Source: Shigella phage JK36. Taken from it: 64,000 nucleotides of DNA. The stretch lies in the sequence record MK962754.1. One strand, 5' to 3'. The notes under the pieces are model-generated. The model saw nothing but the letters and a program-made list of their open reading frames with translations. It was not told the DNA's origin and made no database searches. Shown here piece by piece: positions 8,445 through 18,958 of this stretch; within the stretch, counting starts at the first letter, position 1, and every line of letters begins with the position of its first letter. The position numbers were made by a program, and so were the translations under genes.

Positions 8445-8563
8445 AAATCACCATTATAAATAATAATATCAAAATAATTAGCAGAGACTCTATCTCTGAC
8501 CGGATGTTTAATTTGAATGGATAGAACCTAGATTCATTATACCATCAAAAATTGTAAAGCATA

Positions 8564-13687: not shown

Positions 13688-13716
13688 CCATTATACATAG
13701 GTTGCCTTGAAGCATT
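13688..13716 (-). promoter_or_regulatory. middle (MotA-dependent) promoter for uvsY: MotA box aaTGCTTCA, 12-nt spacer, TATAAT
   Basis: minus-strand read AATGCTTCAaggcaacctatgTATAAT about 60 nt upstream of uvsY. Confidence 0.5.
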
Positions 13717-14113
13717 ACACTCTATTGCTTGACGCTAACTGAAGTTTAATTTGTTCAATATCGTCAGGGTTGTCTACGACCGAAAATCTAATCTCTACTA
13801 TAACCGTATAGTCATCATATACTGGCGTTACACTTACAGAAAGTTTGTCGATGCGTGGCTCATAGTTACGAACAGCTGCCTGGATATTACGCTCAATCGT
13901 ATCGGCTGTAAGTGGTGTCATGTTCTCGAAAAGTTCATCGACCAAATCACATCCAAATTCAGGGTCGAAGGGGCGTGAGCCTTTTCTAGTTGTCACTATA
14001 CCAAGAAGACTATTTTTAATAGAACGAAGTCCTACAGAACGAGCAACGTCCTTGTTCCAATCCATACGCATTTCTGGATCGATATCTGAATAAAGTTTAT
14101 TGATATTAGACAT
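13715..14113 (-). CDS. 25: baseplate wedge protein gp25
   Basis: 132 aa, strong match to remembered T4 gp25. Confidence 0.92.
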   Translation of the reverse strand: MSNINKLYSDIDPEMRMDWNKDVARSVGLRSIKNSLLGIVTTRKGSRPFDPEFGCDLVDELFENMTPLTADTIERNIQAAVRNYEPRIDKLSVSVTPVYDDYTVIVEIRFSVVDNPDDIEQIKLQLASSNRV

Positions 14114-14739
14114 TATAGTAACTCAAAGAATTCTTTGAGGCCTCGTATTGTGTGAACGTGTGACGCCCCACATTTGGGACATTTAATAGGGGTTGCCAGA
14201 TAAATTGACGGCGATACTAAAAGATTTTTAATATTGATCATGTCATCTTCTGTTATAAGGCCGTAAAGGTCGTTTATTTCTGCTTCAGTTAAATCTTCAA
14301 CAGGGATGGACTCTCCATTGACAAAAACGGCCTCAATACATGAAGCAATCATTAATGCGATATTTTTATCGTCAAATAATTTAGGTTGACGGAACTTAAT
14401 TTTAATACCGCTGAACGAATACCAGGGATCGGCCTGTTCATCTAATTGAGTGTGCAATAAATTCATATAGACTTGAAATGAATGCCCACAGGAACAATTC
14501 CAGGTGTGTTCTTGATTCACTTCACCTAATGAATGGGCCCACAGATTTACCAACAATAACTCGGCTTCTTGTTTAGTCAAGTTTTTAGCATTAGAGCAAT
14601 TAGTGATAATATTGTTCACTGCGGATTCAATAGTACCGGTAGCCCGCGCACCTATGAGTCCTAAATATTCTTTTAAAGTAAAGGCTCTACAATTCACTTC
14701 TTTATCGCCTAAACGTACTGTAAACGTATATTTGTACAT
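14113..14739 (-). CDS. 26: baseplate hub subunit gp26
   Basis: 208 aa, synteny; ATGA overlap with gene 25. Confidence 0.85.
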   Translation of the reverse strand: MYKYTFTVRLGDKEVNCRAFTLKEYLGLIGARATGTIESAVNNIITNCSNAKNLTKQEAELLLVNLWAHSLGEVNQEHTWNCSCGHSFQVYMNLLHTQLDEQADPWYSFSGIKIKFRQPKLFDDKNIALMIASCIEAVFVNGESIPVEDLTEAEINDLYGLITEDDMINIKNLLVSPSIYLATPIKCPKCGASHVHTIRGLKEFFELL

Positions 14740-14750
14740 GTTAACTCCTT

Positions 14751-14769
14751 TATTGTGTATTTATAAATA
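14751..14769. promoter_or_regulatory. back-to-back late promoters: palindromic TATTTATAAATA reads TATAAATA on both strands (genes 26/25 leftward, 51 rightward)
   Basis: single 48-nt divergent intergenic region. Confidence 0.55.
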
Positions 14770-14786
14770 ATAGAAAAGGAGTAATT

Positions 14787-15539
14787 ATGGCTAATATAAT
14801 TCGTTGTAAATTACCGGATGGTGTTCATCGTTTCAAGCCGTTCACCGTAGCGGATTATAGAGACTTTTTACTAGTTAGAAATGATATCGAACATCGTTCG
14901 CCACAAGAACAAAAAGAAATAATTGCCGATCTGATTGATGATTATTTTGGCGAGTATCCTAAAACATGGCAACCATTTATATTCCTGCAAGTTTTTGCAG
15001 GCTCTATAGGCAAAACAAAAGTTCCCGTTATTTTCACTTGCCCTAAATGCTCTAAAGAAAAAACTGCACCATTTGAGATATATCAAAAAGAACTAGTCGA
15101 ACCTGAACTTGATGTTGCTGGTATAAAAATACGTTTTTCTTTCCCTGAAAAGTTTTATGACAACAAGGCATTAATGATAAGTGAAAACATAAAAGAAATA
15201 TATTATAATGACGAATGGTACCCATGGAATGATTTGACTGAAGAGAACCAAATCCAAGTAATAGAAGCAATAGACATTGACTCGCTCGAGAAGGTTATTG
15301 CTTCTATGAACCCTATTAATTTGACCCTTAGATTAGGTTGTTGTGAACGACATGTTAAAACATATACTGATATCTTAGAGGTTTTTAAATTGTTAGTTAA
15401 CCCTGATGAGATTTTTACATTCTATCAGATAAACCATTCACTAGTAAAGAGTCAATACACATTGGATTCTATTATGCAAATGATTCCTGTTGAACGTGGT
15501 ATTGCTTTAACATTAGTAGAAAAGGACCATAAAAAATGA
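14787..15539 (+). CDS. 51: baseplate hub assembly catalyst gp51
   Basis: 250 aa, synteny; paralogous to gp26 by eye. Confidence 0.85.
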
Positions 15540-16708
15540 AAGTATTCCAACGTCCAGGATATCCTAACTTAAGCGTTAAATTATACCAAGATTATTCGGC
15601 TTGGCAAGAAAATAGATACGTTGAACTCGCGGCAACAATAACAACTTTAACCATGCGAGATTCGCTATATGGAAGAAATGAAGGGATTCTTCAATTTTAT
15701 GACACTAAAAACATCCACACTAAAATGGACGGTAGACAGATAGTTCAAATCTCTGTTTCAAATTCAAACACACCTCTCCAAGTTAGAACTCGAATTTATG
15801 GATGTAGACATTATTCTGTGTCTGTGGACTCAAAAGGTGACAATATTATTGCAATTGAGCTTGGAACAATACATTCTATAGAGAACCTTAAATTTGGGCG
15901 TCCATTCTTCCCGGACGCAGGCGAATCTATACGTGAAATGTTAGGTGTCATATACAAAGACCGTGCGTTAATTACTCCGCCAATAAACACTATTAATGCT
16001 TATGTTCCTGATATCCCTTGGACAAGCACATTTGATGATTATTTGGCATATGTCAGAGAATTAGGACTTGCTACAGCGAGTGATAAGTTCGTATTCGTAT
16101 GGCAAGATATTTTAGGCGTAAACATGATTGACTACGATACTCTTATTGGTCAGGAAGGCATTAAGATGATTGTAGGTGAGCCAAATACTGTAGGTCAGTA
16201 TATTCAAGAGCTTGAGTATCCATTAGTATGGGATTTCACCTGGATGACTAAAGCTAACCAATTTACAAGAGACCCTATTAAAAACGCCACGATATTCGCT
16301 CATTCATTTTTAGATACATCTATTCCGGTTATTGTTACAGGCGATGGTGATAATGCTATTCTTGTGTCAAGATCCGGTGGATATTCCGAAATGACCTATC
16401 GTAATGGATTTGAAGAAGCAAGTCGTCTTCAGACAATGGCTCAATATGACGGATATGCTAAATGCACTACTACAGGCAATTTTAACATAACGCCTGCTAC
16501 TAAAATTATATTTGTTGACCAAAAGAACCAATTCAAATCCGAATTTTACGTAGATGAAGTTATTCATGAGTTATCAAATAACAACTCACAAACTCATCTG
16601 TACATGTTTACCAACTCAATGGTGTTAGAACCTGTTAACCCAGTTAAGGTTAAAAATGAACTTAAATCTGATTCTACCTCTAAAGAAAATAATTCTACCA
16701 CAGTCTAA
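15536..16708 (+). CDS. 27: baseplate hub subunit gp27
   Basis: 390 aa (T4 391), synteny. Confidence 0.9.
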
Positions 16709-17189
16709 TAAAAAGGTAATGATTCCCAAATTAGGGCTCAAACATTATAATCTTTTAAAGGACGTTAAAGGCCCTGATGAAAACATGAAAATCTTAGCTG
16801 ATTCTATTTGTAAAAATATGAGTCCCGCAGATTTTGATTTTGCATGTCTACACATATTGGAATTTAATAACAAACTTAAGTCTGAAGTTGAAAAAGATGG
16901 ATTCACTTATAAACTAGATGACGTCTATGTATGCCAACGAACAGAATTCCAATTTCAAGGTAATACTTTTTATTTTAGACCCCCAGGCAAATTTGAACAA
17001 TTCGCTACAATCAGTGAAATGCTATCAAATTGCTTAATAAAAGTTAATGACGAAGAGAAAGAAATTTCTTTCCTTGAGATGCCTGCTTTTGTAATCAAAT
17101 GGGCAGAAGACCTTTCGACAACTATTGCTATTCCAGGCCCTAATGGTCCTATTAAGGGTATAGCAGAAATTATTGGATTGCTTGAATGA
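16656..17189 (+). CDS. 28: baseplate hub distal subunit gp28
   Basis: 177 aa (same as T4); overlaps gene 27 3' end in another frame. Confidence 0.85.
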
Positions 17190-18958
17190 AACCTGAAGAA
17201 ATGAAATCCATGCGTAGAAATAAGGTCATTGCCGATAATAAACCACAAAAAGTAGCTGCTGATGCAGCTACCGATTCATTAGAAGCATTGAATAACATTT
17301 CATCAAAACTAGACGATGTCCAAGCCGCGTCTGAACTCACATCACAAAGTGTAGAAGATAAAGGCAATGGAATTATTGAATCAATTGGAGACTTAAAGAA
17401 TTCGACAGATAATACTGCTGAAGGCACAGAGCTTATCGCAGAAGTTATTGAAAAACAAACTGAAGTCACTAAAGGTATAAACGAAGTTTCTAGTGCAATA
17501 AGCTCTAAGTTAGACCGATTAGCTACATTATTAGAGCAAAAATTACAAACATCTACCGCTATTCAAAATACAGGAGGCACCTCTCTTGAAGTAATTGAGA
17601 ACGCAATACCTGTTAAAGTGGTTGAGAATGAAACTTCTGATGAGTTGTTTAAAGCATTCCCTACACCTGAAAAGATTGATAATAAGCCAGACGAAGATTT
17701 CTTCCCAGCACCGGTTCAAGAAAGTGCTAATTCTACTTCCGATTCTAAAGGCGGAATTAGCTTTAAATTGAGCGATAAAATTGCAATGCTCACCAAAACA
17801 GTTCAAACCGGGTTTAATAAATCAATATCAATTTCAGACAGAATTGCTGGAATGCTTTTCAAATACACTATAACGGCTGCTATTGAAGCAGCAAAAATGG
17901 CCGCACTTATTCTTGGTATTGTTATCGGTATTGATTTATTGATAGTCCATTTCAAATATTGGACAGACAAGTTCACTTCTGCCTGGGATTTATTTGATGA
18001 AAACTTTACTAAATTCTCCGATGAAGCTAAAGAGTGGGGTAAATTCTTAAGTGATATATTCACTTCTATTGACTCTATAAAACAATTGTGGGAAGCTGGA
18101 GACTGGGGTGGTTTAACCGTTGCTATTGTCAAAGGTGTAGGAACAGCATTAATGAACTTAGGTGAACTAATTCAATTAGGAATGGCTAAACTCTCCGCGT
18201 CTATATTGCGTGCTATAGGTTTTGGTGATACCGCGGACGAAATAGAAGGACGTGCTTTAGAAGGATTCCAAGAAACTACTGGGAACAAATTAAAGAAAGA
18301 AGACCAAGAGAAAGTCGCTAAATATCAAATGAAACGTGACGATGGGGAATTAGGAACCGTTTCTAAAGGTCTTGATATGTTACAACGCGGCAAAACATTC
18401 GTTACTAACTGGGTTCGTGGTAATGACAATAAAGAAGAGTTTAGTACAAGCGATGAGCGTGCTGCGGAATCAGCAAAATTAAAAGAGTTACCTGAAGAGG
18501 AGCGTAAAGAGGCGTATATAAAAGCTAATGAAACTCGTGCGGCACTGGTTAGATTTGAGGATTATATCGATAAAATCGATATGACTAATCCGGAAAATGC
18601 TAAAAACGTCGAGAAGTCTTATGCTGATTTAAGTAAACTTATTAAAGACCCTGAACTTAATAAAACTCCTGTTGTTAAAAAGGAACTAGATGCTAGATTT
18701 GAAAAGCTAAATAATAAAATGGCTGAAGCCAAAAAGGCTCAGACAACAGTTAAGCCTGAATCTTCGTCTAAATCTCCGGAAGCAAAACAAGTTCAGTCAA
18801 TAGAGAAAGGACGTGCTTCTGAATCTAAACAACAGCAACCGGTAGCGGCGATTAGTAACACAAATAATGTCGTCAAAAAGAATACCGTAGTCCAGAATAT
18901 GACCCCTGTAACAAGTACAACGGCTCCTGGAATTTTCCATGCCACCGGTGTTAATTAA
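17186..18958 (+). CDS. 29: baseplate hub subunit / tail length determinator gp29
   Basis: 590 aa (same as T4). Confidence 0.9.
   Translation: MKPEEMKSMRRNKVIADNKPQKVAADAATDSLEALNNISSKLDDVQAASELTSQSVEDKGNGIIESIGDLKNSTDNTAEGTELIAEVIEKQTEVTKGINEVSSAISSKLDRLATLLEQKLQTSTAIQNTGGTSLEVIENAIPVKVVENETSDELFKAFPTPEKIDNKPDEDFFPAPVQESANSTSDSKGGISFKLSDKIAMLTKTVQTGFNKSISISDRIAGMLFKYTITAAIEAAKMAALILGIVIGIDLLIVHFKYWTDKFTSAWDLFDENFTKFSDEAKEWGKFLSDIFTSIDSIKQLWEAGDWGGLTVAIVKGVGTALMNLGELIQLGMAKLSASILRAIGFGDTADEIEGRALEGFQETTGNKLKKEDQEKVAKYQMKRDDGELGTVSKGLDMLQRGKTFVTNWVRGNDNKEEFSTSDERAAESAKLKELPEEERKEAYIKANETRAALVRFEDYIDKIDMTNPENAKNVEKSYADLSKLIKDPELNKTPVVKKELDARFEKLNNKMAEAKKAQTTVKPESSSKSPEAKQVQSIEKGRASESKQQQPVAAISNTNNVVKKNTVVQNMTPVTSTTAPGIFHATGVN

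Follow-up and report, generated by a model that had tools for sequence, protein, structure and literature searches.

Paralogous baseplate hub assembly genes 26 and 51 and the overlapping late-promoter boxes between them in a T4-like Shigella phage

Shigella phage JK36 (sequence record MK962754.1) was analysed over a stretch of 64,000 nucleotides, here called the window. Positions 13700–15600 are 99.6% identical to Escherichia phage APCEc01, 95–99% identical to about 130 other Mosigvirus (RB69-like) genomes, and 60–80% identical to T4 and other Tevenvirinae. Judged by these identities, the window is a Mosigvirus, a T4 relative of the RB69/APCEc01 type. Its gene order is that of T4, namely uvsY, 25, 26 (minus strand), then 51, 27, 28, 29 (plus strand), and Pfam matches confirm gp25, gp27, and gp28. 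Gene 26, for a baseplate hub assembly chaperone of 208 amino acids, occupies 14113–14739 on the minus strand, and gene 51, for a baseplate hub assembly protein of 250 amino acids, occupies 14787–15539 on the plus strand, both as given in the list of open reading frames. Further along the plus strand follow gene 28 (16656–17189, 177 amino acids, PF11110) and, directly 3' of it, the tape-measure gene 29 (17186–18958). Genes 26 and 51 are separated by a divergent intergenic control region that serves both strands (14740–14786). An earlier sequence-only reading had placed the two open reading frames correctly and had given this spacer as 48 nt, which was corrected to 47 nt.

The same reading had proposed, from an alignment by eye, that gp26 and gp51 are paralogues. 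BLASTP with compositional adjustment aligned the two proteins over 214 columns at 25% identity (E=2e-10), and the core peptides that had been paired by eye were found in the same register. The score thus stayed significant after composition correction, on which the proposal had been staked in advance. Profile-profile comparison with hhalign, in which gp26 was represented by 34 orthologues (43–99% identity) and gp51 by 47 orthologues (40–74% identity), gave a probability of 99.2% and E=1.3e-19 over 188 columns, spanning nearly the whole of gp26 (188/208) and residues 9–203 of gp51. Both proteins also match a single curated Pfam family, PF12322 (T4_baseplate, gathering threshold 24.5 bits), along its entire profile (1–219/219), gp26 with 203.5 bits (E ~1e-60) and gp51 with 200.2 bits (E=4.6e-59). 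PHROG 150 (phrog_150) likewise contains both, and the NCBI name of the orthologues is 'gp26 family baseplate hub assembly chaperone', while NCBIfam has no family for gp26, gp51, or gp28.

At the level of predicted structure, the AlphaFold model of gp26 (pLDDT 91.8) was compared with BFVD, a library of viral structures. The first group matched consisted of gp26 orthologues and the second of 'baseplate hub assembly' proteins of 250–253 residues (E 1e-15 to 1e-12, TM ~0.7); a gp51-type 'hub assembly catalyst' was matched as well. The models thus point to the shared fold that had been expected, with gp51 represented by relatives of its length. A likeness produced by chance or composition, that is, by short Cys motifs and AT-rich codon bias in place of common descent, might be suspected, as pairwise identity is just 25% and the conspicuous CPKC motifs of the two proteins do not align with each other. 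However, it was rejected on the composition-adjusted BLASTP score, the profile-profile alignment across 188 of the 208 gp26 residues, and the end-to-end coverage of both proteins by one curated HMM at about 200 bits each, and the predicted structural match to gp51-length proteins speaks against it too, so that virtually no weight is left to it. On these alignments, gp26 and gp51 are true paralogues, members of one protein family that acts in baseplate-hub assembly in T4-type phages. This kinship is already known in so far as Pfam and PHROGs group the two, and the window proteins are ordinary members of PF12322 and PHROG 150 that show no difference from the rest. A search of the accessible literature found no explicit statement of gp26/gp51 paralogy or of a role as tail assembly chaperone (TAC), and papers on proteins called 'gp51' or 'gp26' in other phages proved to be unrelated.

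The model of gp26 suggests two domains, an N-terminal TAC-like domain of the order beta-beta-alpha-alpha-alpha and a C-terminal alpha/beta domain that contains a conserved site of four cysteines (Cys4). A TAC-like N-terminal domain and a C-terminal domain held together by the four cysteines are predicted for gp51 as well. The site comprises C82, C84, C187, and C190 in gp26 and C85, C88, C185, and C186 in gp51. Three of the gp26 cysteines (C82, C187, and C190) do not vary among the orthologues, and C84 is conserved in at least 90% of them; among gp51 orthologues C85 and C88 never vary, and conservation of at least 90% was found for both C185 and C186. CPKC had been pointed out as a motif common to both proteins, and it is indeed present in each, but not at homologous positions: hhalign pairs the CPKC of gp51 (C85/C88) with the CSC of the CSCGH motif in gp26 (C82/C84), and the CPKC of gp26 (C187/C190) with the CC of gp51 (C185/C186). 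By this alignment, gp26 and gp51 each hold one conserved four-Cys site at equivalent positions.

In the gp26 model, the Cys pairs lie in the turns of two beta-hairpins (E75–81/E87–93 and E179–186/E193–199), so that four conserved cysteines at beta-hairpin turns were found, as in a two-knuckle zinc ribbon. Weak matches in sequence and fold to zinc-ribbon proteins were also obtained (Elf1, RNase P Rpp21, Tim15, NrdR, and ZitP). The layout is that of a zinc ribbon, and zinc is presumably bound there. Adjacent cysteines such as C185-C186 of gp51 are an atypical pair of zinc ligands. Pfam and PHROGs are silent on the aligned Cys4 site.

Two further features concern only one of the paralogues each. 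A possible internal in-frame product, gp26', would consist of the C-terminal 95 amino acids of gp26 (14113–14400, minus strand). Its putative start is an AUU codon (14398–14400, minus strand, residue 114) that is aligned with the start of 26' annotated in the T4 record and stands in a GGT-ATT-AAA-ATT context conserved from T4. Such a product would begin exactly at the best-conserved strand, IKIKFR, and would contain only half of the Cys4 site. In gp51, residues 1–203 are paralogous to gp26 and are followed by an additional C-terminal domain about 45 amino acids long. This extension (residues ~204–250) has no counterpart in gp26 or gp28 and falls into families of its own, PF28602 (from precomputed assignments of orthologues) and phrog_634. 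It is rich in invariant residues (E208, Y213, Y224, P234, and R237), and it may be a source of the distinctness of gp51.

The spacer between the two genes contains the perfect 12-nt palindrome TATTTATAAATA (14758–14769, both strands), identical to its reverse complement. A single copy is present in the window, where 0.04 copies would be expected. The palindrome comprises two exact copies of the box TATAAATA that overlap by 4 bp, with the central TATA common to both. One lies on the plus strand (14762–14769), 17 nt from the ATG of gene 51, as the putative promoter box for genes 51-27-28-29, and the other runs from 14765 to 14758 on the minus strand, at a distance of 18 nt from the gene 26 ATG, as that for genes 26-25. 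The claim of a late box on either strand was therefore upheld. In T4, TATAAATA is the late-promoter consensus and occupies positions -13 to -6 (PMC1524935), and late promoters can do with the 8-bp box, without a -35 element and in either polarity (PMC2988020). By the -13 to -6 rule, the rightward transcript is predicted to start at about 14775, with a 12-nt leader, AAAGGAGUAAUU, before AUG, and the leftward transcript at about 14752, with a 13-nt leader, UAAAGGAGUUAAC, before AUG. Each gene has a Shine-Dalgarno sequence AAGGAG 5 nt before its ATG, at 14776–14781 (plus strand) for gene 51 and at 14745–14750 (minus strand) for gene 26, the one site mirroring the other, and the two leaders as a whole are mirror images.

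Across the window, TATAAATA was found 14 times against 7.2 expected, and nine of these boxes lie 17–30 nt upstream of an open reading frame on the same strand that starts with ATG. Among these, the boxes of the 26/51 pair stand closest to their ATG codons, at the 17 and 18 nt given above. Seven boxes, at 2427, 6097, 10930, 12995 (minus strand), 45989, 51069, and 55611, stand 20–30 nt upstream of ATG open reading frames and, judged by this placement, are probably the other late promoters of the window. Those at 1475 and 3151 lie within long open reading frames, and the one at 8455 has no open reading frame start within 120 nt downstream. Promoters are not annotated in the examined 26/51 region of the T4 RefSeq record. 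A 'promoter' feature in the record of phage NBG1 was set aside as irrelevant to the 26/51 spacer, as its position is within gene 27, on the other strand.

Conservation of the spacer was followed in 55 loci encoding gp51 relatives on viral contigs, together with T4 and phage NBG1. Genes 26 and 51 could both be detected in 54 loci, and they diverge in every one of these. The exact palindrome TATTTATAAATA is present in 47 of 54 loci, corresponding to 27 of 32 distinct spacers, and is retained in phages whose gp26 is down to ~31% identical to that of the window. In the 27 palindrome-bearing spacers, the bases directly flanking it are conserved to 33–60%, and conservation resumes at the Shine-Dalgarno sequences of the two genes. 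This footprint is what would be expected from selection on two overlapping promoter boxes. Together with the exact match to the T4 definition, such strong phylogenetic footprinting bears out the suggestion of back-to-back late promoters, and promoter activity on either strand fits both the sequence and its conservation.

From five of the 32 distinct spacers the exact palindrome is missing. Three variant loci (L047, L049, and L051) have kept the rightward box alone. In another (L042, IMGVR_UViG_650627003_000001) the pair is rearranged, with a different overlap, in the spacer CATTTATAAATATTTATAAAGG. There the order of the boxes is exchanged, the rightward one coming first and an exact leftward one lying to its right, and the usual left half-site carries one mismatch; given this order, the transcripts are predicted to run across each other and not apart. 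From the rightward-only and the rearranged spacers it follows that strict overlap of the boxes is not obligatory. In Aeromonas-type T4-like phages (L052; L048, 2960–3003) a 10-nt palindrome, TATTTAAATA, replaces TATTTATAAATA. Its boxes would overlap by 6 bp, and in both the same position departs from the consensus, because a palindrome forces symmetry.

Perfect palindromes are typical of operator sites, and TATTTATAAATA might thus serve chiefly to bind a dimeric regulator, with its match to two promoter boxes secondary, or only one of its boxes might be in use, in line with the relatives that retain the rightward box alone. A candidate regulator would be DsbA of T4, an accessory factor of late transcription that binds A/T-rich sites and was reported at two late promoters, which its sites overlap (PMC2988020). 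However, the affinity of DsbA is reported to be low and its gene is non-essential (PMC2988020). The conserved block is precisely as long as two TATAAATA boxes require, 12 nt, with positions -1 and +12 unconserved, and a longer operator is disfavoured because conservation stops at the palindrome. Gene 26 moreover has no other space for a promoter upstream, because the other strand carries the start of gene 51 at a distance of 47 nt. The 17 and 18 nt from box to ATG are similar to the distances found at other boxes of the window. A role mainly as an operator, or use of a single box, is therefore considered very improbable, and two divergent late promoters are the preferred reading of the palindrome.

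Overlapping divergent late boxes are already present in T4. The T4 26/51 region carries the same TATTTATAAATA in a spacer of 50 nt, against 47 nt in the window, and the palindrome and the Shine-Dalgarno elements alone are shared between the two spacers, whereas the flanks differ. Scarlato and colleagues (Virology, 1989) reportedly mapped overlapping late promoters and divergent transcription of the T4 base-plate cluster by experiment. Like the late promoters of T4, which depend on gp55, gp33, and gp45, the window has orthologues of late genes that are preceded, on either strand, by an exact TATAAATA; unlike them, the window pair shares 4 bp and lies 17–18 nt from the ATG. As stated from the sequence, the finding of paralogy and promoters is a correct, ordinary observation that changes nothing. 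Its value lies in a clean, confirmed case of a predicted minimal bidirectional promoter that is kept in the T4-like phages sampled, even where gp26 identity is as low as ~31%.

For the two operons, the following course of events is proposed. RNA polymerase carrying gp55 would start late transcription of gene 26 and gene 51, each from its own TATAAATA box. Leftward transcripts would serve genes 26-25 and rightward transcripts genes 51-27-28-29, starting about 6 nt past the respective box (~14752 on the minus strand and ~14775 on the plus strand) and carrying mirror-image leaders of 12–13 nt with AAGGAG 5 nt before the ATG. Because the 8-bp element suffices, TATTTATAAATA would be the smallest possible bidirectional late promoter. 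Since the boxes share 4 bp, the promoters would not be independent, and a polymerase on one would occlude the other. Through this occlusion, the two operons would probably be fired alternately, one direction at a time. The reading as a whole, in which the paralogues stand head to head behind late boxes of their own, with alternate firing and a chaperone role presumed for them, is held with high confidence.

A third relative seems to be encoded two genes downstream of gene 51. gp28 belongs to a separate Pfam family, PF11110 (Phage_hub_GP28, 272.3 bits against a cut-off of 21.5), and resembles gp26 by eye, the gp26 segment compared being FSGIKIKFRQPKLFDD. With profiles built from close orthologues, hhalign gave weak scores for gp28 against gp26 (E=0.0014), gp51 (E=0.0087), and a merged gp26+gp51 profile (E=6e-4), and gp26 against the gp28 family phrog_1140 reached E=0.002. 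An exhaustive HMMER search of 1.84 billion proteins with a gp28 profile returned 47 representatives (50% identity) and recovered no gp26 or gp51. The relation became significant only when divergent gp28 members were added to the profile: gp26 against this broadened profile scored 95.5% and E=1.6e-8 over 131 columns, and gp51 E=4.5e-4.

The predicted structures agree with these alignments. The gp28 model (pLDDT 89.4) has the order of secondary-structure elements of gp26, minus one helix. Searched against BFVD with Foldseek, it found the representative of gp26 at E=5e-6 and proteins of gp51 length at E between 4e-5 and 6e-5, and reciprocally the gp26 model matched a gp28 orthologue of 175 residues. 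gp28 has no conserved cysteines and lacks the Cys4 site. By profiles and models, gp28 is a third, more diverged, Cys-less paralogue of gp26 and gp51, which has lost the cysteines. The gp28 family is very narrow; the gp26/gp51 fold occurs in many distant large myoviruses (in BFVD, of Campylobacter, Bacillus SP-15, phiRSL1, and PaBG). Pfam and PHROGs do not mention the link to gp28. No statement of this link was found in the accessible literature, nor of the aligned Cys4 site or of an N-terminal domain resembling a TAC, and the three are modest additions to what the families already tell.

With regard to the history of the locus, the sequence-only reading had suggested an ancient inverted duplication. 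Such an origin of the 26/51 pair would be reasonable, with the same outcome to be expected from a duplication followed by an inversion. As all sampled loci are divergent, the event must be older than the sampled diversity, and a third paralogue in direct orientation implies more than one duplication. Alternatively, gp26, gp51, and gp28 might have arisen by tandem direct duplications, with a later inversion of gene 26 together with gene 25 and subsequent selection of the palindrome for compactness. The direct orientation of the gp28 paralogue, two genes downstream of gene 51, would agree with such a course, and a late promoter, with a minimum of 8 bp, arises or persists easily. However, the sampled loci are all divergent already and fit both histories alike, and the tandem course is considered rather unlikely.

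A role of the three paralogues as chaperones was considered next to their kinship. gp26 and gp51 are listed as hub assembly chaperones by Leiman et al., and gp51 is needed for assembly yet absent from the particle (PMC3004832). Gene 28 adjoins the tape-measure gene 29, with genes 51 and 26 two and three genes further upstream, and some database labels read 'tape measure chaperone' or 'tape measure protein assembly chaperone'. From the adjacency of gene 28 and gene 29 and the roles described (PMC3004832), chaperoning of gp29 becomes plausible. In hub assembly, gp26, gp28, and gp51 would then probably chaperone the tape-measure protein gp29 and hub proteins, bringing gp29 into the hub. A PDB sequence search returned no chain matching gp26, gp51, or gp28.

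The TAC fold consists of a beta-hairpin followed by a helical spiral. In the models, similarity to it covers only ~70–78 residues at moderate Z. Compared with known TACs (lambda gpG/gpGT class; HK97 TAC, PDB 2OB9; YqbN, 3KLU), the window proteins lack a TAC match at the level of sequence, as Pfam scans at E<=1 gave no TAC family for gp26, gp51, or gp28. Unlike these TACs, gp26 and gp51 have an extra C-terminal Cys4 domain. The frameshift pair G/GT of lambda also differs from the window, where three separate paralogous genes (26, 51, and 28) are found and binding of gp29 is putative. No G/GT-type -1 frameshift pair was seen among genes 26, 51, and 28; many TACs of other phages also do without such a frameshift.

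A more far-reaching proposal is that the three TAC-like paralogues form the long-missing gp29 chaperone system of T4, with gp26 and gp51 stabilised by a Cys4 zinc ribbon lost from gp28 and with mutually exclusive promoters, overlapping by 4 bp, setting the ratio of leftward (26-25) to rightward (51-27-28-29) hub and wedge transcripts. It is put forward tentatively, at slightly below an even chance. If true, it would give a concrete biochemical role to the gp51 that classical genetics called 'catalytic'. If gp26, gp28, and gp51 form one family of tape-measure chaperones with a zinc site, direct tests of how the T4 hub is assembled would become possible by binding studies and mutagenesis.

A minor observation concerns the junction of genes 27 and 28. 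The best match of the gp28 model in BFVD is A0A0A0YVM8 of Citrobacter phage Moon, a protein of 545 amino acids labelled 'Tape measure chaperone' and 55% identical to gp28. Its length is that of a gp27-gp28 fusion, from which it appears that a frameshift-type fusion product was annotated there. A quick read of positions 16630–16730 in the window revealed no obvious slippery heptamer. Genes 27 and 28 have 53 nt in common (16656–16708), gene 28 being read in the +1 frame from an ATG of its own.
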